This document shows positions 11,273 through 63,773 of a DNA stretch of 64,000 nt, one piece after another. The DNA lies in the IMG/VR virus record IMGVR_UViG_3300020444_000002, positions 22,431-86,430 of that record, one strand, 5' to 3'. Position 1 is the stretch's first letter. Each line of letters opens with the position of its first letter. The notes beneath the pieces are model-generated. The model worked only from the letters and a program-made list of their open reading frames with translations, was not told the origin of the DNA and did not search any database. Source of the stretch: a virus. The position numbers and the translations under genes were made by a program.

Positions 11273-12688
11273 TTATACCCCAATGCGGTTTAGGTTATGA
11301 GCAGGGTCTTTTATTTTGCCATGGACAGTACTGTGCTTTCTCACTGCTATAAAGAATGAATCTGCATAATCCGGCGAGCGGCCGAGAATTTCTTTAATTT
11401 TTTCTTTCTTTGTCACTTTTTCAACACCGTCAACCATATCCGTATCGTGCGCACTTATCTCTCTCCACAGCTCATCCTCATTACCCCTATACGCATCCTT
11501 CTGGAATATTTGTATCTCAGCATCTTCTAGTGCCCGGCGAGCGTTTAGTGCAGTTTCGTTACGACTTTTACCTGTAGCTACATACTCGTCGATATACCAA
11601 CCTAACAATTTCATGTTGTCACGCATGCTAGTACCGACACCATTACATTCAATACTGATATGGTGGGCGTATGCTTTTGTGAAGCCCTTGCTTTCTGCCC
11701 AAGCTATCAACTGTTGCGCGAAGAGATACCCAATAGGTCTAGAGTCAACTTCACTGCTTTGGCCGTAAGTCCTCTCTGGTATTTTTAGCTCGCGCTGTTC
11801 CATAACAATATCATCTTCAATAAGGGTTGCAACACAAGCGTCACCACCACCATCACTCACATCCACTCCAATCACTTTGTTAAATTTAGTACGGGTGAAT
11901 TTAGGGATAATATTACCAACTTCGTTGCGTTCTGGTTCGGGGAGGCGGAAGATACTAGCTCTTTCCCATAGGTAACCTTTAATAAGCGCATGGTCTTCGT
12001 CGAGGTAGTTCCAGTTGTTGCGTAAGTAGCGTTCAACCCACCACTTCGGCTTACTACGAATGAGAGAATTAATATCTTTATCTGACTGCCAGCTATCCTC
12101 TAGGGTGAACTCAATCACCATAACATTGCTTGGTAGCTGGCCCTTCTTCCATTTATCATAGTAACGGTTTTTAGCCCATCCATTATTTGGGTTCATGGTG
12201 TGGATATTTATACTCGGTTGGCCTTCCTGGTTAGCACGCCCCTTACGAGACATAATCATATCGGCCGCATCCTCAATTAACTCGTTCGACTCTTCCAGTT
12301 GGTTAGCAGTAATATCAAGACCCTTAATTTTGTTTTGGTCTTTGTCGGTGCTAGAGTCTGCCTGCGCAAAAGTAATGAGGCTCTTATTGGGGAATTCTAT
12401 TAACAGCGAACCTTCATTAAGCTTGTAATGCTTATCCTCAACCATATTCATGTCTGACATCATCTTCTTATAGGTGCGCCAGATTGTCTTACGCGCCGTG
12501 TTGAAGTTCTTACGCCATACAAATAGCTGCGAATGGGGGAAGGCTTCCGCTATAGATATGAACACATGAGCCGTTAAGGCACTCTTACCTGTACCAGTTG
12601 GTCCAATTAGAATAATCTCATCTATTTCTGGACGAGTGTTTATAATATCTATTACCGACTGTTGCTTAGGCTTGAGTTGTAGAGTCAT
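11273..12688 (-). CDS. terL: Terminase large subunit
   Basis: Walker A GPTGTGKS, Walker B-like QLEES, TMNP coupling motif, nuclease GVDV and RSPDYADS. Confidence 0.93.
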   Translation of the reverse strand: MTLQLKPKQQSVIDIINTRPEIDEIILIGPTGTGKSALTAHVFISIAEAFPHSQLFVWRKNFNTARKTIWRTYKKMMSDMNMVEDKHYKLNEGSLLIEFPNKSLITFAQADSSTDKDQNKIKGLDITANQLEESNELIEDAADMIMSRKGRANQEGQPSINIHTMNPNNGWAKNRYYDKWKKGQLPSNVMVIEFTLEDSWQSDKDINSLIRSKPKWWVERYLRNNWNYLDEDHALIKGYLWERASIFRLPEPERNEVGNIIPKFTRTKFNKVIGVDVSDGGGDACVATLIEDDIVMEQRELKIPERTYGQSSEVDSRPIGYLFAQQLIAWAESKGFTKAYAHHISIECNGVGTSMRDNMKLLGWYIDEYVATGKSRNETALNARRALEDAEIQIFQKDAYRGNEDELWREISAHDTDMVDGVEKVTKKEKIKEILGRSPDYADSFFIAVRKHSTVHGKIKDPAHNLNRIGV

Positions 12689-27234: not shown

Positions 27235-27519
27235 TAACTCTTTCCATACTGGTTATGTTGCCCTCTTTTACCTTTTTCCATTTCTCTTCCATGAACCTAC
27301 TGCCATGCCCGTTTGGGCACTTTGGTTGTCTCGCTATTGCGATAGGTATATAAATAATTAACCAAACTATCGGTGCTATAACAAACAACGTGAACAATAC
27401 CCAAAGGACAGTAGATTGAAATTCAGCATCCCTCTGGGCGCTAAGGATGTATTCTGCGTGTGCTTCGTATGTTTCCATGCCGCTAATTATAGCTCATTTT
27501 TGCTAAAAACGCAAGCGTA

Positions 27520-51516: not shown

Positions 51517-51855
51517 TGGTGGAGATGGAGGGAACTGCCCCCTCGTGTCCTGAACGCACAACTAGATTTCTGTTACAAGCTTATCCAGTTACTACTGGCA
51601 AAAGAAAGAGTGTGACACCACCAAGCCTTTTTTAGGCTAAAAGGCTAAACCGTCCCCTGCGGAACCACCTAGTCATACGGGCTAGGACGTTCGCGTGATT
51701 AAACCAGTGCGAAGGCTGGTGCAGGCGCAAACAGTTTTTTAATCTGTGCGACTACCGAGTTGAATGCTTTTGCATTTATAATGAAACTTTTAAGTTAGTC
51801 AAACTACTTGCTTACTAGTCGTTAAAATTCAAGGTCGAAATCTATATTCATCCCC
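51517..51855 (-). ncRNA. ssrA: tmRNA
   Basis: 5' GGGGATG...TTCGAC, 3' CATCTCCACCA with G3:U70; ATAAAT-GCA resume site; tag AKAFNSVVAQIKKLFAPAPAFALV*; own TTGACC/TATAAT promoter. Confidence 0.93.
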
Positions 51856-54079: not shown

Positions 54080-54156
54080 TGGCTCGGAAGGTTGGATTTG
54101 AACCAACAACATCCAGCTTCAAAGGCTGGCGACTCTACCAGTTGGTCTACTTCCGA
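54080..54156 (-). tRNA. tRNA-Gln(TTG)
   Basis: CCAGC-CT-TTG-AA-GCTGG; CCA end. Confidence 0.93.
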
Positions 54157-54176
54157 ATATTTGGCGGAAGTCGGAA

Positions 54177-54566
54177 TCAATTCTTCCGACTAGCGTACTT
54201 TTTGCGACGACTATCACTGTAGACCGTTTTACACACCTCACAGCGACAACCTATACGATACCCAGAGGTTCCATGTGTAAACTTACCTTTATTATGTGGT
54301 ATAGCGCCTAAATATCTTTTAGCGGCGCTATTACAGGAGCGGTGGCTGTACGATATATTGTTTATATCAAAATAGAGTAGCACGGGGTTGGGGCTGTCAA
54401 TCCATGGAATAATATGTTCTATAGAAAATGTTTCCCTCGTCATATCTTCATTACAGCGATAGCATTTTATATCTGCGTTTTTAACGAACTCGTATAATAA
54501 ATCTTTTACTAATCTGCCATTAGCAGTGCTTGGGTTCATACCCAATTGTTCTTTCATTTTGTCCAT
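54177..54566 (-). CDS. HNH endonuclease inserted at tRNA-Ser 3' end
   Basis: CYRC...SIEHIIPW...N...SH..CN; paralogue of 62769-63134. Confidence 0.85.
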   Translation of the reverse strand: MDKMKEQLGMNPSTANGRLVKDLLYEFVKNADIKCYRCNEDMTRETFSIEHIIPWIDSPNPVLLYFDINNISYSHRSCNSAAKRYLGAIPHNKGKFTHGTSGYRIGCRCEVCKTVYSDSRRKKYASRKN

Positions 54567-54637
54567 AACAATCCTTTGATGTTTATTTTTGGCTTCTAAG
54601 GACAATTATAACGTAACTCGTTTTTTTGAAATAATTT

Positions 54638-54720
54638 CGGAAGTCGGTGTACTCGAAACACAATGCTCTCACATCACACATCTTAGCAGGATGGTCTAGC
54701 TCCTCGCTAGTTCAGCTTCC
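54638..54720 (-). tRNA. tRNA-Ser(GCT), no encoded CCA
   Basis: CATC-CT-GCT-AA-GATG, long variable arm; last 10 nt duplicated with CCA at 54162-54174. Confidence 0.8.
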
Positions 54721-54723
54721 ATT

Positions 54724-54798
54724 TGGCTCGGAAGGTAGGACTTGAACCTACAACCTTCTGATTCAGAGTCAGACGCCCCACCATTAGGCCACTTCCGA
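54724..54798 (-). tRNA. tRNA-Gln(CTG)
   Basis: TCTGA-CT-CTG-AA-TCAGA; CCA. Confidence 0.93.
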
Positions 54799-54804
54799 TT
54801 ATCT

Positions 54805-54880
54805 TGGGGTGACCGACGAGTGTCGCACTCGCCTCTCCGACTTCACAGGTCGGCGCTTTCACTGGTAAGCTACGGCCAAC
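54805..54880 (-). tRNA. tRNA-His(GTG)
   Basis: CCGAC-CT-GTG-AA-GTCGG; G-1/C73; atypical T-loop TGCGACA. Confidence 0.88.
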
Positions 54881-55024
54881 ATATCTTTTCTGGTTTTTCT
54901 TTTACGTCTATCATAACCAAGCCCACAGACGATACAGTTTACCTCACAACGGTACTTCTTTGTATGTTTTTTATTTAGCGCGAGTATCTTTTTAAATCTT
55001 TTTTTCACTGATACCCTTTCTTTT

Positions 55025-55111
55025 TGGCGGAAGACGAGGGACTCGAACCCTCAAGGGCTATTAACCCCAGCCGCTTTCAAGGCGGTGTCCTCATCCAGCC
55101 GGATATCTTCC
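55025..55111 (-). tRNA. tRNA-Ser(TGA)
   Basis: CCGC-CT-TGA-AA-GCGG, long variable arm, GCCA end. Confidence 0.93.
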
Positions 55112-55123
55112 GTGTTATTAATG

Positions 55124-55207
55124 TGGTGGCGTCAGATGGATTCGAACCATCAGTCCTTACGGACAGGAGGTTTAAGCTCCCTGCGTGAACCGTTTCGCCA
55201 TGACGCC
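55124..55207 (-). tRNA. tRNA-Leu(TAA)
   Basis: GGGAG-CT-TAA-AC-CTCCT; ACCA. Confidence 0.93.
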
Positions 55208-55253
55208 AAAAATGGTGGCTAAGGAGGGAGTCGAACCCTCAATCCTTGCGGCA

Positions 55254-55535
55254 CTAGTTTCTTTTTCTCTTGTGCCAGCCCCTAGAAGCGGAACGTATGG
55301 CGTGACAATTCGCACATACCACTTCACACTTCGCTATCTCGGCTTCTATCTTTTCCCAAGAGTTAAAACACATCGAAGCAACAGTGTTGAGTTTGACAAA
55401 TCCTGGAAGATGGTCAAACTCTAGGGCAACTGAGTTCTTGTTATACCCGCAATCGGCACAACCCCTATCTATCTTGATTTGGGCAATACGTTCTCGGTTA
55501 CGTTCGGCTCTCAGTTTTTCTTTTAGGCTTATCAT
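55254..55535 (-). CDS. Small HNH endonuclease
   Basis: GC.DCG.....ALEFDH...EIAKCEVVCANCH..R; stop codon lies in the 3' tRNA half. Confidence 0.88.
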   Translation of the reverse strand: MISLKEKLRAERNRERIAQIKIDRGCADCGYNKNSVALEFDHLPGFVKLNTVASMCFNSWEKIEAEIAKCEVVCANCHAIRSASRGWHKRKRN

Positions 55536-55683
55536 GTTTTTTCTTTTGGTGGCGCTACTCAGACTCGAACTGAGATGAGCTTTCGCTCGCTTGCTTCTAA
55601 GGCAAGTGGGTCTACCAATTCCCCCATAACGCCACATTTTTAGGTTACTATTCCAATTATAACCTTTTCCGCTTTTTGTCAAG
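55263..55683 (-). mobile_element. 421-bp cassette: promoter + intact tRNA-Leu(TAG) + HNH gene
   Basis: Lies exactly between the two tRNA halves. Confidence 0.8.
55547..55633 (-). tRNA. tRNA-Leu(TAG) (cassette-borne)
   Basis: CTTGC-CT-TAG-AA-GCAAG; variable arm; ACCA. Confidence 0.93.
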
Positions 55684-55721
55684 AAAACTAGCGTGTATAC
55701 CATTCCACCACTCAGCCATTT

Positions 55722-55807
55722 TGGTGTGTCTGCTCGGATTTGAACCGAGATGAGCCGAAGCTCGGCAGGGTTTGAGCCTGCTGGGTCTACCGTTCCCCCA
55801 CAAACAC
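55722..55807 (-). tRNA. tRNA-Leu(CAA)
   Basis: GCAGG-CT-CAA-AC-CCTGC; ACCA. Confidence 0.93.
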
Positions 55808-55812
55808 ATATT

Positions 55813-56409
55813 TTACTTTTTGTTTGACCTAGCCAATAATGTAGCTCGTATCTTTGCTCTTGTTTCTTCTGGCATATTCTTGCCCTTCAGCCATGTTGTT
55901 TTGCCTTTTTTAGCCTCGGACATTTTTCTCTTGGTTTCATCGGAGTGTTTTCGCCCAGTGAATGAACCAACTAACTCACCTGATGCATATTTCTTCCTTA
56001 TCGTAACTCTACGTTTTTCGATAGCCTCAAGTGTCCGCACGCCGTTCATGTTTCTATTAACATGACCACGGTTCTTGCCACCCTTGGAGCGGAACTCACT
56101 GTTCGGTTGTAGAGCATTTATATATTCCCAACCGCCACTGCCACCTTCATGTAGGTTGTACTCTGGCTTTAAGAGCGCTATTAGTTTAATCTCCTCTGCG
56201 AGCATATCTGTTTCTTTATCAAAATCAAACAATATTTCTTTTTTAAAGTTCTCAAGCCCGTATTTAGCTTGTGCATGCTTCAAGTACTTACCAGAACCCA
56301 TGTATTTGTCGTTTACATTTTTCGTTCTGTGGCAGCCTATATAGGTTTTGCCGTTTATTTTATTGGTGATTTTATACACCAAATAGTGTTTTTGTGTTAC
56401 AATTTCCAT
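55813..56409 (-). CDS. GIY-YIG homing endonuclease with NUMOD3 repeats (Seg-like)
   Basis: VYKITN.INGK.YIG, YMGSG, YNL, GRKHSDETKRKMSEA. Confidence 0.92.
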   Translation of the reverse strand: MEIVTQKHYLVYKITNKINGKTYIGCHRTKNVNDKYMGSGKYLKHAQAKYGLENFKKEILFDFDKETDMLAEEIKLIALLKPEYNLHEGGSGGWEYINALQPNSEFRSKGGKNRGHVNRNMNGVRTLEAIEKRRVTIRKKYASGELVGSFTGRKHSDETKRKMSEAKKGKTTWLKGKNMPEETRAKIRATLLARSNKK

Positions 56410-56524
56410 AGAACCTCTTTGTGTTGATTTAAGCGTTAGACAGAGGGGTTCTTTTGTGTTAGAATAACCCTCTAGTCTAATTATAACGCTTTAGGTTTTT
56501 TTGGAATAAATTGTAAATAATTTG

Positions 56525-56595
56525 AGCTGCGCAAGGGAATCGAACCCTTGTGATTCGCTTTGCAGGCGAGCGCCTAGCCACTCGGCCAACGCAGC
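56525..56595 (-). tRNA. tRNA-Cys(GCA), no encoded CCA
   Basis: TCGC-CT-GCA-AA-GCGA; U73 followed by CAA. Confidence 0.9.
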
Positions 56596-56604
56596 ATATT
56601 TTTG

Positions 56605-56680
56605 TGGTGGCGTCGGCTGGACTTGAACCAGCGACTCAGAGCTTTTCAGGCTCCAGCTCTACCGACTGAGCTACAACGCC
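56605..56680 (-). tRNA. tRNA-Phe(GAA)
   Basis: GGAGC-CT-GAA-AA-GCTCT; ACCA. Confidence 0.93.
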
Positions 56681-56686
56681 ATAATT

Positions 56687-56764
56687 TGGTCAGAGCAGCA
56701 GGATTCGAACCTGCGGTCTCTCGCGTCCAAGGCGAGCATGTTGGCCTGGCTACACCACACTCTG
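56687..56764 (-). tRNA. tRNA-Pro(TGG)
   Basis: CTCGC-CT-TGG-AC-GCGAG; ACCA. Confidence 0.93.
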
Positions 56765-56770
56765 ATAATT

Positions 56771-56845
56771 TGGCTCCGCAGGCTGGATTCGAACCAGCAA
56801 CCTTCTCCTTAACAGGGAGCTGCGCTACCATTGCGCCACTACGGA
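56771..56845 (-). tRNA. tRNA-Asn(GTT)
   Basis: CTCC-CT-GTT-AA-GGAG; GCCA. Confidence 0.93.
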
Positions 56846-56852
56846 ATATATT

Positions 56853-56927
56853 TGGCGGACCGTACGGGACTCGAACCCGTTTCATTTCCGTGACAGGGAA
56901 ATATGTTAACCCATATACTAACAATCC
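56853..56927 (-). tRNA. tRNA-Asp(GTC)
   Basis: TTTCC-CT-GTC-AC-GGAAA; GCCA. Confidence 0.93.
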
Positions 56928-56933
56928 ATATTT

Positions 56934-57007
56934 TGGCAGGCAGTGAAGGTAACGCTCCCTCGTCTGTGGGTTTGGAATCCACTATTCTGCTATTGAACTA
57001 ACCACCT
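56934..57007 (-). tRNA. tRNA-Trp(CCA)
   Basis: GTGG(A)-TT-CCA-AA-(C)CCAC; atypical T-loop; GCCA. Confidence 0.88.
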
Positions 57008-57011
57008 GTAT

Positions 57012-57392
57012 TTGTAAGGCTTTGTTGATTTGTACCTTACTTCACCGATACCTAACGTAACATGTACAGAAGGCTCAAATCGGGAACAAATCCGGCGAGA
57101 GCTTTTGTTGGTACTCTCGTATGAGTGCGATGCCGAGGGGTGTTCGCTTATTCCTTCCTCGACCCTTACTAGTCTAGAGCTAGCAGATACGGCAGCGAAG
57201 CCGTTCTACACAACCATGCAGACGTCTGGCTATTCCAACATCAGTGTACAGAGCGTAGCCATAACCTACGATGTCTTAAACGCGCACGACCACTCGCCAC
57301 CCATCACGGTTTACCAGTCCCCTTGGGGGGTCACTTATAGCCCACTGCTGCTGTCCTACCGTGCCGAAGCCTTGTCCGTCATTGCGCTTATA
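57012..57392 (-). ncRNA. Candidate large structured ncRNA at the head of the tRNA operon (about 380 nt)
   Basis: GC-richer, no credible ORF, several hairpins (CCCC/GGGG, CGTAG/CTACG, ACGGC/GCCGT, CGAGG/CCTCG, CGAGAG/CTCTCG). Confidence 0.6.
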
Positions 57393-57414
57393 TTTATATT
57401 ATACCTAAATTGTT

Positions 57415-57447
57415 AAAGAAAAAGCAACCTCTTTTTAGGAGGCTGCT
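57415..57447 (-). terminator. Intrinsic terminator of attenuator 1
   Basis: AGCAGCCTC-CTAAAAA-GAGGTTGCT then TTTTCTTT. Confidence 0.85.
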
Positions 57448-57482
57448 CGGAGGTTTTTGTTTTCTATACTACACTGAGAAAA

Positions 57483-57560
57483 TTATGTCCGAGCGCCAAC
57501 CAAAAAGCTATCTGGATTCCAGAGCTGTGACGGCTGATGTTGTGTACATAATTCACTCAT
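57483..57560 (-). CDS. Leader peptide 1, MSELCTQHQPSQLWNPDSFLVGART
   Basis: ATG 6 nt after TATAAT (TTGTGT-N17-TATAAT); 3' end overlaps the antiterminator arm. Confidence 0.85.
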   Translation of the reverse strand: MSELCTQHQPSQLWNPDSFLVGART

Positions 57561-57610
57561 ACTTCTATTATACACCATCGTGTTTTAAAACACAAGCGTT
57601 TTTTCAATTT

Positions 57611-57634
57611 TGGTGACCGTTAGAAGATATGCCC
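57611..57634 (-). pseudogene. Internally deleted tRNA remnant
   Basis: GGGCATA-TC-TTC-TAACGGT fused directly to CACCA. Confidence 0.5.
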
Positions 57635-57637
57635 ATA

Positions 57638-57723
57638 TGGTGGCGCAGGAGGGAATCGCACCCACTCGACCCGAAGGACTGGTTTTACAGACCAGCTCGT
57701 CTGCTTTAACGAATTACTACGCC
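57638..57723 (-). tRNA. tRNA-Tyr(GTA)
   Basis: CTGGT-CT-GTA-AA-ACCAG, long variable arm, ACCA. Confidence 0.9.
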
Positions 57724-57729
57724 ATAGTT

Positions 57730-57804
57730 TGGTGACCTATGTGGGAGTTGAACCCACCTCTACAGCTTGAAGGGCTGTTATCCTTTCCGATAGACGAATA
57801 GGCC
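57730..57804 (-). tRNA. tRNA-Glu(TTC)
   Basis: ACAGC-CC-TTC-AA-GCTGT; ACCA. Confidence 0.92.
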
Positions 57805-57812
57805 ATGATGTT

Positions 57813-57836
57813 AAAAAATCGCCTCTTGGGGCGACT
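57813..57836 (-). terminator. Intrinsic terminator of attenuator 2
   Basis: AGTCGCC-CCAAGA-GGCGATT followed by T-run, just 5' of tRNA-Glu. Confidence 0.8.
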
Positions 57837-57865
57837 ACGGTTTTGACAAAAAGAAGAAGCCCCTG

Positions 57866-57910
57866 CTAAGAGTTATATTCTTCCTCGTAATAGCTTACTG
57901 AATTTGTCAT
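57866..57910 (-). CDS. Leader peptide 2, MTNSVSYYEEEYNS
   Basis: ATG 6 nt after TATAAT (TTGCGT-N17-TATAAT); TAT TAC GAG GAA GAA TAT run. Confidence 0.88.
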   Translation of the reverse strand: MTNSVSYYEEEYNS

Positions 57911-57998
57911 ACTACCATTATAACGTATTAGCCAAAATAACGCAACATTTTTATTAAAACGCTCTTGTTTTTTAATGCAACTTGCTTCATAATTAATA

Positions 57999-59102
57999 GT
58001 GAACATAAACAGGGGAAATAAGTTGAAAGAAAAACCGCTAAATATAAACAGCTACTACAGTAAAGTAGTTGGTGTAACATTTGAGGGCCGTCAGGATGTT
58101 ATAGGACTTATGGACGGTAGTGAGCAGTTGCGGTTCCGTCGAGAGCCAGAAAACGAATATGACAAAAATGCTGTTGCGGTTGACGCTCTTGTAACACATG
58201 TAGCGCCAGAACCAGAATGGCTTACTATTGGTTACATTGCAAAAGACAAAAACAAAGAGCTGGCAGAAGTACTTACTGATGGCAAATATGCTTCCATAAA
58301 AGTGAGTGATATAACGGGTGGTGGAGACAAGAGTTTCGGGGTTAATGTTCATATTGAACACGAACGAATAATCAAAAAACACCGTTCTGAAAATGCAGTT
58401 TTAGTAAAAGACTTTTTTGGCAATGAAATATTCTACAACCCTGTCGCACATGAATATACAAATGCACTAGGTGAAGTCTACCTTTCGGGGAGTGCCTATG
58501 CATCAGGTGAAGAATTTGATAGTGAATTCTGGGCCAAGAACACCGTTGACCGTTACAACCTACCAGATGAAGTAAAAGCTCAAATAATAGATATGTGGAA
58601 TATAAACGGTGAAGCGAGCCGCAGCTTCGGGACTGCTGTTCACGCAGCAATCGAACTTTATGGGAAGTACCGAGGGCTGGCAAAAGTTATTGACACAGAC
58701 TTAAAGACAAAAAAACGCAAAATGCTTGACTCTAAGACAGAGAAAAACTCTGCACTAAGTAAAATACCCTATTTAAGGGACGCAACCCTAAAATTCTTTA
58801 ACAAAGAACGTGCAGAAGAAAAAGCGGTTTATGAGGTGCTAGTAGTTGACCATGAACATAAACGCGCTGGTCGTATTGATCGTCTGGTGATAAAGGATAA
58901 CGGTACATTTGAGGTTCGGGACATGAAGACGAACTTTAAGCTTCCAAAAAAAGAGAGAGACGGCTACCAAAAGCAGCTAAGCTTCTACGCCGATATAATA
59001 TTAGCGAACGGTGGAACTCTTGGCGACAACCCAATAATGCTGCATCACTGGAAGGATGGAGAATGGGTCGATGTAAAGCTAGGAAAGATTGATACATTAT
59101 AA
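57999..59102 (+). CDS. HIRAN domain fused to PD-(D/E)XK exonuclease
   Basis: VVGVTF..RQ...REPENEYDKNAVAV...IGY; GTAVH..IE, AGRIDRL, DMKT, QLSFY. Confidence 0.85.
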   Translation: MNINRGNKLKEKPLNINSYYSKVVGVTFEGRQDVIGLMDGSEQLRFRREPENEYDKNAVAVDALVTHVAPEPEWLTIGYIAKDKNKELAEVLTDGKYASIKVSDITGGGDKSFGVNVHIEHERIIKKHRSENAVLVKDFFGNEIFYNPVAHEYTNALGEVYLSGSAYASGEEFDSEFWAKNTVDRYNLPDEVKAQIIDMWNINGEASRSFGTAVHAAIELYGKYRGLAKVIDTDLKTKKRKMLDSKTEKNSALSKIPYLRDATLKFFNKERAEEKAVYEVLVVDHEHKRAGRIDRLVIKDNGTFEVRDMKTNFKLPKKERDGYQKQLSFYADIILANGGTLGDNPIMLHHWKDGEWVDVKLGKIDTL

Positions 59103-63208: not shown

Positions 63209-63284
63209 TGGAGGGAGTGGTGGGAATCGAACCCACAACATTTCGGTTAAGAGCCGAATGCTCTGCCAATTGAGCTACAATCCC
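63209..63284 (-). tRNA. tRNA-Lys(CTT)
   Basis: TTCGG-CT-CTT-AA-CCGAA; CCA. Confidence 0.92.
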
Positions 63285-63511
63285 ATATGGTTACACACAC
63301 CAACCGTTCTTGTTGTAATCGCACAATTCAAACAATAAATTCTTATGTATTCGCGTGATCTTATTGGTATGAACAACGGCACTTTGTCGCCACAGCAAAA
63401 ACAAATTGGTCTGCCATACTCACGAACATACATGTCTATGAACTCGTAATTTAGTAGCCCTGCCTTAACATGTCGGCGTGTTGGCTTGCTTGTTGCTTTA
63501 ACGATTGCCAT
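63275..63511 (-). CDS. Small zinc-binding hypothetical protein
   Basis: CFCC and CLNC motifs; lies between tRNAs. Confidence 0.45.
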   Translation of the reverse strand: MAIVKATSKPTRRHVKAGLLNYEFIDMYVREYGRPICFCCGDKVPLFIPIRSREYIRIYCLNCAITTRTVGVCNHMGL

Positions 63512-63525
63512 ATGTCTATTGTATA

Positions 63526-63600
63526 TGGTGGAGTCTCAGGTAGTCGAAACCTGATTCCCTCCGTGCAAAGGAGGAGTAATAACCGTTATACGAAGACCCC
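63526..63600 (-). tRNA. tRNA-Ala(TGC)
   Basis: CCTCC-TT-TGC-AC-GGAGG; G3:U70; ACCA. Confidence 0.92.
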
Positions 63601-63698
63601 AAATTGTAATGTGCGACGAGAGGTTTTAGTATTACTTTCAACTATGCAACTCCTGCTGAGTCTGACCTCGTAATCATGCTAATTACCATTATAGTATA

Positions 63699-63773
63699 TG
63701 GTGGCTCCAGAAGGATTCGAACCTTCACTGCGACGTTCGTAGCGTCGTGGTCTATCCATTAGCCTACAGAGCC
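63699..63773 (-). tRNA. tRNA-Arg(ACG)
   Basis: CGACG-CT-ACG-AA-CGTCG; ACCA. Confidence 0.93.

Follow-up and report, generated by a model that had tools for sequence, protein, structure and literature searches.

On its minus strand, the window (by which we mean the whole 64,000-nucleotide (nt) stretch analysed here, bases 22431-86430 of the 86,430-nt IMG/VR virus record IMGVR_UViG_3300020444_000002, which is rated 87% complete) carries a promoter, a 25-codon open reading frame (ORF) and an intrinsic terminator, followed by a conserved structured RNA and an array of 14 transfer RNA (tRNA) genes. We refer to this arrangement as unit C, to its ORF as leader C and to its tRNA genes as array C; it is one of three leader/terminator/tRNA units (A, B and C) of the same phage (Table 1), and the DNA runs that hold the window sequence are marine metagenomes. 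An earlier note, made from the letters of this DNA, had described the promoter (TTGTGT-N17-TATAAT), the 25-codon ORF that begins 6 nt past its -10 box and the terminator hairpin with its T run, and all three were reproduced at the positions listed; a generic scan also reported a terminator-like site at 57448-57422. The set of 14 downstream tRNAs named in the same note was recovered as well, in the order Trp, Asp, Asn, Pro, Phe, Cys, Leu-CAA, Leu-TAG, Leu-TAA, Ser-TGA, His, Gln-CTG, Ser-GCT and Gln-TTG. ARAGORN at default settings reports 12 of them (56927 to 54080), tRNA-Trp (56937-57007) was found by Rfam (40.2 bits) and also by ARAGORN at a relaxed threshold, and Ser-GCT (54637-54721) was found by relaxed ARAGORN only. 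Ser-GCT aligns with the Ser-GCT genes of relatives and is the weakest call of the 14, because it is a relaxed-only call with a degenerate T arm and no CCA end.

The promoter of unit C is one of 21 exact sites in the genome that combine a TTG-type -35, a spacer of 16-18 nt and a perfect -10, and about a dozen of these, including that of unit C, also share the A-rich stretch and a similar -35 region. Leader C has no Shine-Dalgarno sequence, and because its ATG lies only 6 nt after the -10 box, the mRNA of unit C is probably leaderless, starting at or next to the ATG. An ATG 5-8 nt past such a -10 box occurs in 11 cases genome-wide, among them protein genes of 91-160 amino acids (genes that begin 6-7 nt past the -10 lie at window positions 27491, 49981, 50421, 37879 and others). 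As protein genes too start just after -10 boxes, leaderless mRNAs seem to be normal for this phage. A Shine-Dalgarno-like word stands upstream of 31 of the 58 long ORFs.

Table 1. Positions of the predicted elements of units C, B and A and of associated features (window coordinates unless stated otherwise).
Feature	Position	Strand	Description
Promoter of unit C	57567..57595	-	-35 at 57595-57590, 17-nt spacer, perfect -10 at 57572-57567, A-rich stretch upstream
Leader ORF of unit C	57483..57560	-	25 codons and stop (57485-57483); ATG at 57560, 6 nt past the -10
Antiterminator 5' arm (region 2)	57487..57498	-	within the last five codons of leader C
Antiterminator 3' arm (region 3)	57441..57451	-	overlaps the terminator 5' arm
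Intrinsic terminator of unit C	57418..57447	-	9-base-pair (bp) stem and 7-nt loop at 57447-57423, -13.0 kcal/mol; five T at 57422-57418
Internal promoter-like site	57398..57427	-	-35 at 57427-57422 overlapping the terminator 3' arm, 18-nt spacer, perfect -10 at 57403-57398
Conserved structured RNA	57008..57391	-	between attenuator C and tRNA-Trp
Array C, 14 tRNA genes	54080..57007	-	called by ARAGORN, Rfam and relaxed ARAGORN
Three homing/HNH endonuclease ORFs in array C	55813-56409, 55254-55703, 54177-54605	-	PHROGs E 1e-45, 4e-23 and 2e-36
Promoter of unit B	57917..57945	-	-35 at 57945-57940, perfect -10 at 57922-57917, same family as unit C
Leader ORF of unit B	57866..57910	-	14 codons and stop; ATG 6 nt past the -10
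Attenuator of unit B	57813..57863	-	terminator 57835-57818, -8.0 kcal/mol, T run to 57813
Array B	57638..57804	-	tRNA-Glu (57804-57730), tRNA-Tyr (57723-57638)
Unit A	genome 1306-1150, outside the window		promoter, ATG 6 nt on, 28-codon ORF, terminator
tRNA-Arg-ACG, tRNA-Ala, tRNA-Lys-CTT	63209..63773	-	putative distal end of array A

The codons of leader C list the amino acids of the tRNAs encoded behind it. All 10 amino acids of array C are present in leader C, and 17 of its 24 post-initiator residues belong to this set, compared to a match fraction of 0.42 expected from the proteins of the genome. Within codons 2-20, 17 of 19 encode array amino acids (the exceptions being one Glu and one Thr), as the earlier note had counted. 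Random peptides of the same length drawn at the amino-acid frequencies of the genome reach such a match together with full coverage with P = 8.8e-5. The match is specific to array C, as only 5 and 1 residues of leader C match the sets of arrays A and B, respectively, and it is strongest in the ATG frame (0.71, versus 0.54 and 0.33 in the other two frames, which cover 7 and 5 of the 10 amino acids). Strict wobble matching of codons to anticodons was tried as a further measure and rejected as not discriminating, most mismatches falling in four-codon boxes with a single U34 tRNA. Could leader C then be a random short ORF that happens to lie beside a terminator ending the upstream Glu/Tyr unit? 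An open frame of 25 codons is in itself not unusual, and the genome has 893 ATG ORFs of 12-35 codons, of which 57 attain the match fraction of leader C and 3 attain full coverage; however, both together are reached by leader C alone, which is placed exactly before the matching array. The same holds for the other two units, each of the three leaders being the only one of the 893 ORFs that reaches its own match and coverage, and the design is conserved in 10 genomes, such that we give a chance arrangement hardly any credence at all.

Unit B, immediately upstream of unit C, repeats this arrangement on a smaller scale. In leader B, six consecutive codons all specify Tyr or Glu, the two amino acids of array B, and 6 of its 13 residues match, versus a fraction of 0.10 expected. 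After its stop codon, a 5-nt G/C arm (57863-57859) can pair with the 5' arm of the terminator, and in the predicted nascent fold four of the six terminator arm bases are paired upstream. Unit A lies outside the window; downstream of its terminator come tRNA-Lys, -Ile, -Thr, -Gly, -Arg, -Ile and -Val. The tRNA-Arg-ACG, Ala and Lys-CTT genes near the end of the window probably are the distal end of this array, because two relatives (G002 and G003) carry the same gene order in one piece; once these three tRNAs are counted, 25 of the 27 residues of leader A match. Array A is interrupted by the contig break, with the leader and the first seven tRNAs at the start of the record (genome 49-1306) and the last three at its end. 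As this break falls inside array A, with parts at both ends, the record is probably a permuted, nearly complete genome.

To determine how widely this design recurs, we compared the arrays of related genomes. One relative (G001) was obtained by an IMG/VR pattern scan for the -10 region plus ATG, which proved unspecific (at least 119 stretches, of which only one, L096, is a relative). Further relatives were collected by an IMG/VR search with a terminase alignment, and not via the leader, to avoid bias. Among the 16 further records scanned for tRNAs, 8 gave tRNA matches above the cut-off, which together with G001 and with G002, the closest complete relative of the window genome, makes 10 relatives with arrays, whose terminases are about 29% to 80% identical to that of the window. 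In nine of these ten relatives, tRNA arrays are preceded by matched short ORFs of the kind that the earlier note had suggested to look for; with the window genome included, 10 of 11 genomes carry 22 units (9 of type A, 4 of type B and 9 of type C), and leader composition follows changes in array content. Relatives sought via the neighbouring exonuclease gene were of no use for the comparison (17 loci, at most 35% identity apart from one short match of 40%, and few or no tRNAs). When cultured phages were searched at the DNA level, matches were confined to the tRNA-Trp part and came from 2 records, and a terminase search of cultured phages gave only 25-27% identity, to Bacteroides and Polaribacter phages, from which no host was drawn; on these grounds the phage has no close cultured relative. 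The tRNA region of a cultured T4-like phage, taken as a negative control, contains no matched short ORF (best fraction 0.31), and the leader design is therefore not universal among phages with tRNA genes.

Across the 22 units the position and the frame of the leader are kept. The distance from the -10 to the ATG is 6 nt in 16 units, with five further units at 7 nt and one at 10 nt, and the ATG frame is the best match to the downstream tRNA set in all 22 units (mean 0.69, versus 0.32 and 0.32 in the other frames). Every array amino acid is present in 20 of the 22 leaders, the exceptions being unit A of G001 (8 of 9) and G013 (6 of 7). Calculated unit by unit, the binomial tails lie between 2.6e-5 and 0.18, with unit B of G001 as the weakest; the Tyr gene there appears to be interrupted, so that ARAGORN reports Glu alone. 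This tRNA-Tyr gene (L164, about 11706-12300) appears to be split just past the anticodon by approximately 500 nt that contain an ORF, which could be an intron or a homing-endonuclease insertion.

When array content changes between genomes, the leaders change with it. All five type C leaders whose array C includes tRNA-Tyr (those of G004, G010-12 and G013) contain Tyr, at three different places, and the type C leaders of the window genome, G002 and G009, in which tRNA-Tyr lies elsewhere, are without Tyr; leader C of G001 has one Tyr, located within the pairing arm. The array of G013 is without Leu and Asp tRNAs, and its leader is without Leu or Asp and still has Ser, Cys and His, and no Gly. 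The Glu/Tyr unit (type B) was found only where those two tRNAs form a block of their own; where tRNA-Glu ends array A (G004 and G010-12), the type A leader has Glu, and of the five type A leaders with no tRNA-Glu in their array, two (those of G002 and G009) also contain one Glu. The CTC codon for Leu, which the earlier note had described as only a CUN-box match to the TAG anticodon, is retained in 8 of the 9 type C leaders.

These comparisons also bear on the idea that the short ORFs encode functional small peptides or arrest peptides and that their match to the tRNAs is secondary. The type A leaders lend it some substance: in five genomes, with terminases as low as about 30% identical, the last 16 nt before the stop codon are nearly invariant even in nucleotides (L002 1208-1225, minus strand), which may reflect an RNA-level signal or a peptide motif, and the type A ORF of G010-12 has 53 codons with a hydrophobic segment. 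However, what the type C and type B peptides keep is their composition; order and length vary, and rare residues (Trp, Cys and His) shift position between genomes. The residue set follows array content, and each ORF is tied to a terminator/antiterminator pair at its stop. We thus regard a peptide function as improbable.

The second half of each unit is a predicted RNA switch. In all 22 units a hairpin (-4.7 to -15.9 kcal/mol) is followed by 4-7 T, and when the nascent RNA is folded up to the terminator loop, the 5' arm of the terminator pairs with an upstream partner at or near the stop codon in 19 of 22 units. For types A and B this partner is located 3-12 nt past the first base of the stop (with the exception of unit A of G004, at +10 to +21), and type C has it 1-29 nt ahead of the stop (with the exception of unit C of G004, where two paired bases come after the stop). 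In unit C of the window, the pairing of the ORF end with the terminator 5' arm that the earlier note had pointed out was confirmed (57497-57488 with 57451-57441), with a duplex of -18.6 kcal/mol that is stronger than expected from shuffled sequences (p = 0.013, 300 shuffles). By the same measure, the duplexes of all 9 type C units reach p <= 0.023; p <= 0.05 is reached by 3 of the 9 duplexes of type A and by none of the 4 of type B.

As MAFFT alignments of the type A and type B attenuators lost the register of the helices between genomes, we relied on the shuffles and on a swap test, in which the stop-proximal regions of 19 units (three near duplicates having been dropped) were paired with their own terminator arm or with the arms of other units. 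Own pairs average -11.0 kcal/mol versus -6.6 kcal/mol for swapped pairs, a difference reached by 0 of 100,000 permutations; within types, the corresponding counts are 0 of 20,000 for C, 43 of 20,000 for A and 4,155 of 20,000 for B. Unit C of the window ranks first of 19 for its own terminator arm. Alternative folds are predicted for leader C: its full-length RNA folds at -43.2 kcal/mol (z = -3.99, a value reached by 0 of 200 shuffles) into a 1:2 hairpin that sequesters the antiterminator arm, plus the terminator, and when truncated ahead of the 3' arm the RNA adopts the antiterminator (-29.4 kcal/mol, z = -1.62, reached by 10 of 200 shuffles). Of the 9 type C units, 8 have the terminator in the ribosome-free equilibrium fold, compared with only 2 of the 9 units of type A, and for this reason type A looks like a two-state switch; type C looks like a three-state attenuator of the trp type.

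To place the ribosome in this scheme, we masked 27 nt of the leader at successive codons. In leader C the nascent antiterminator stays in place with the mask at codons 2-18 and is lost at codons 19-25, and a mask at the last codons removes it in 20 of the 22 units (the exceptions being unit A of G004 and unit C of G002). The proposal in the earlier note that a stall at any sensing codon frees the antiterminator therefore holds in this footprint model for codons 2-18 and fails for codons 19-25. As stalls at the only Phe codon (19) and at the last of the three Leu codons (20) would mask the antiterminator arm, these two codons may not be inputs.

A strongly structured leader RNA with predicted control over a terminator is also what an RNA-only switch would look like, one that senses tRNA or another ligand directly in the manner of a T-box or riboswitch, with the ORF being incidental. 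The match to the tRNA set is, however, specific to the ATG frame in every unit, in 21 of 22 units a fixed 6-7 nt separates the ATG from the -10, no Rfam family matches the leader and a single specifier could not address 10 different tRNAs. In keeping with this, Rfam including the T-box family gave no match in 57000-57620 at E values up to 1 nor in 57000-57420 at E values up to 10, and we rate a switch of this kind as very improbable, marginally more so than a peptide function.

The complete anatomy, its recurrence and its co-variation with both tRNA content and the unit's own terminator support the trp/his-type architecture put forward in the earlier note, and we consider it likely, on sequence and folding models, that unit C is a ribosome-mediated (leader-peptide) transcription attenuator that gates the phage tRNA operon and that units of this kind are working attenuators of tRNA transcription. 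Transcription would start at or next to the ATG, a ribosome would load on this 5' ATG and, coupled to RNA polymerase, would translate the 25 codons, thereby sampling each amino acid of the 14 downstream tRNAs. With smooth decoding, the ribosome would come to cover the arm at 57498-57487, the terminator (57447-57423) would form and transcription would stop ahead of the tRNA genes. If the ribosome instead stalls at an earlier codon for which charged tRNA is scarce, the arm would be free to pair with 57451-57441, the terminator would be blocked and RNA polymerase would continue into the structured RNA and the tRNA array. When no ribosome is present, the long 1:2 hairpin would sequester the arm and the terminator would form, as in the trp leader. 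The outcome would be a many-input, demand-driven feedback on the supply of each tRNA block, with host tRNA loss, codon demand or nucleases as conceivable physiological triggers. We offer only tentatively the more specific idea that phages with large tRNA arrays divide these into blocks, each under a roster-matched leader, and that the leaders are many-input sensors of charged tRNA through which host tRNA loss (by an anticodon nuclease or host shut-off) induces the replacement set, amounting to a counter-defence circuit with the RNA of approximately 400 nt as part of the response.

Several observations weigh against such attenuation. At the level of the codons, 7 of the 24 residues of leader C are outside the array set, many of the matched codons of four-codon boxes would under strict wobble be read only if U34 tRNAs decode all four, and leader C of G004 has a His codon, yet neither tool finds a His tRNA there. 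With regard to the switch, stalls at codons 19-25 are predicted not to free the antiterminator arm, the type B helices are only 4-6 bp and are significant neither by shuffling nor in the within-type swap test, and unit A of G004 and unit B of G002 rank last in the swap test and have no antiterminator by these measures. Among the relatives, G008 carries only 4 tRNAs, and these follow a terminator and a promoter with no leader ORF in between; moreover, the genomes share ancestry and G010-12 are near duplicates, such that the 22 units represent a handful of events and are not independent. As to transcription, a generic promoter scan reported no minus-strand promoter in 56900-58000, the unit C promoter being missed because its -35 fits the textbook consensus at only 3 of 6 positions. 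Furthermore, no terminator lies between tRNA-Tyr (57638) and the leader C promoter, and for this reason read-through from unit B could enter unit C and carry leader C untranslated. Finally, array C may in the window genome also be expressed without the attenuator, from the internal promoter-like site, and RNA contigs begin near 57383, approximately 8 nt inside the transcript expected from this site, although a processing site would look alike.

The internal site, whose overlap with the 3' side of the terminator the earlier note had already flagged, was confirmed, with a perfect -10 and a plausible -35 at a spacing of 18 nt right behind the terminator. It raises the prospect that array C is driven mainly from here and that the upstream promoter, ORF and terminator are a separate short unit or the relic of an attenuator. 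Its -10 lies in an insertion that is common to the window genome and G002 and absent from G004, G001, G009 and G010-12; the site, being restricted to the window genome and G002, does not belong to the conserved design, and the six other genomes keep leader, antiterminator and terminator without it. The RNA data are Logan metatranscriptome contigs only, from which neither transcript ends nor absence can be read. Exact contigs at 57161-57383 occur in four marine metatranscriptome runs (from one study and at most two samples), two of which also have 56979-57125. These contigs cover the structured RNA and none covers the leaders, the terminators or most tRNAs, which in contigs says nothing either way. 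That the contigs of all four runs start near 57383, with none over the leader, is a weak hint in favour of the internal site, but terminated leader transcripts of approximately 140 nt are not expected in such libraries. In addition, leader C and its pairing are intact, and the first rank of unit C in the swap test argues against decay. We thus consider it unlikely that the internal site is the main driver of array C, and favour the leader-peptide attenuator.

The RNA into which read-through from attenuator C would proceed is itself conserved. A structured RNA of about 250-450 nt is present in 8 of the 9 type C units (8 genomes) and absent in G013, and 13 of its 28 predicted pairs show compensatory changes. 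No Rfam family covers it, and two weak Rfam matches (E 0.094 and 6.7) lie on the opposite strand and were taken as chance.

The usual view of phage tRNA genes is that they are expressed constitutively, either to assist codon usage or to provide spares when a defence targets tRNAs. The elements of unit C are familiar from the trp, his, leu and pheA operons of enterobacteria, which are controlled by leader-peptide attenuators with a terminator and an exclusive antiterminator. Like these leaders, the phage units have a promoter-proximal short ORF with regulatory codons, an intrinsic terminator, a mutually exclusive antiterminator and a stop codon placed such that the terminating ribosome masks the antiterminator arm, with unit C also having the 1:2 hairpin. 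Unlike them, the phage units control tRNA genes and a structured RNA instead of biosynthetic enzymes, and leader C samples 10 amino acids about once or twice each without a run of a single residue, is apparently leaderless and resides in a phage. Closest in design are the multivalent attenuators, the thr leader that senses Thr and Ile and the ilvGMEDA leader that senses Ile, Leu and Val, in which several amino acids are read in one leader and any of them can relieve termination. By contrast with these two or three amino acids, the phage leaders list 2, about 8, or 10-11, matching the isotypes encoded behind them. The pheST attenuator, in which a leader peptide controls a tRNA synthetase operon, likewise applies leader-peptide attenuation to the translation apparatus as a feedback on decoding capacity, but it responds to one amino acid and governs a protein product of a cellular gene. 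The T-box riboswitch also senses the state of tRNA and switches between terminator and antiterminator, but there the RNA binds one uncharged tRNA directly and no ORF is needed, whereas the phage signal is frame-specific and ORF-based.

A precedent for leaderless leaders is described in a preprint on mycobacteria, in which polycysteine leaderless short ORFs at operon 5' ends act as amino-acid-responsive attenuators (bioRxiv 10.1101/834739). As presented in that preprint, and unlike the phage units, these ORFs respond to a single amino acid and precede Cys-related protein genes in cellular genomes (bioRxiv 10.1101/834739). Among published examples of accessory tRNA arrays under regulation, the closest is the trn operon of Anabaena, a silent tRNA array that is induced under translational stress (PMC8421152, PMC10272220). 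It resembles the phage arrays in that accessory tRNAs are switched on when translation is impaired; its control, however, is ascribed to direct repeats over the -10 box and the transcription start plus a repressor, and the main text of PMC8421152 contains no instance of "leader", "attenuat-" or "terminator". Within open-access full texts (supplements excepted) and bioRxiv, we found no published leader-peptide or attenuator control of tRNA genes, in phages or otherwise. What unit C would add is a known mechanism applied to a new class of genes, the tRNA genes, with a broader roster and in a phage setting. If the attenuation operates as proposed, these phages would gauge decoding capacity codon by codon and make tRNAs on demand, classical attenuation would extend from 1-3 to 10 amino acids and from enzyme operons to the tRNAs themselves, and the sorting of arrays by isotype would be explained. 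In addition, the leaders could be put to use as small natural sensors that report how available tRNAs are, and the design gives a testable handle on when and why phages need tRNAs of their own.

Beyond the three arrays, the window also encodes a phage transfer-messenger RNA (tmRNA) on the minus strand at 51517-51855 (Rfam 53.1 bits, against a gathering score of 47), with a family-type promoter of its own just upstream, and G001 likewise has a tmRNA (L164, 16186-16541).

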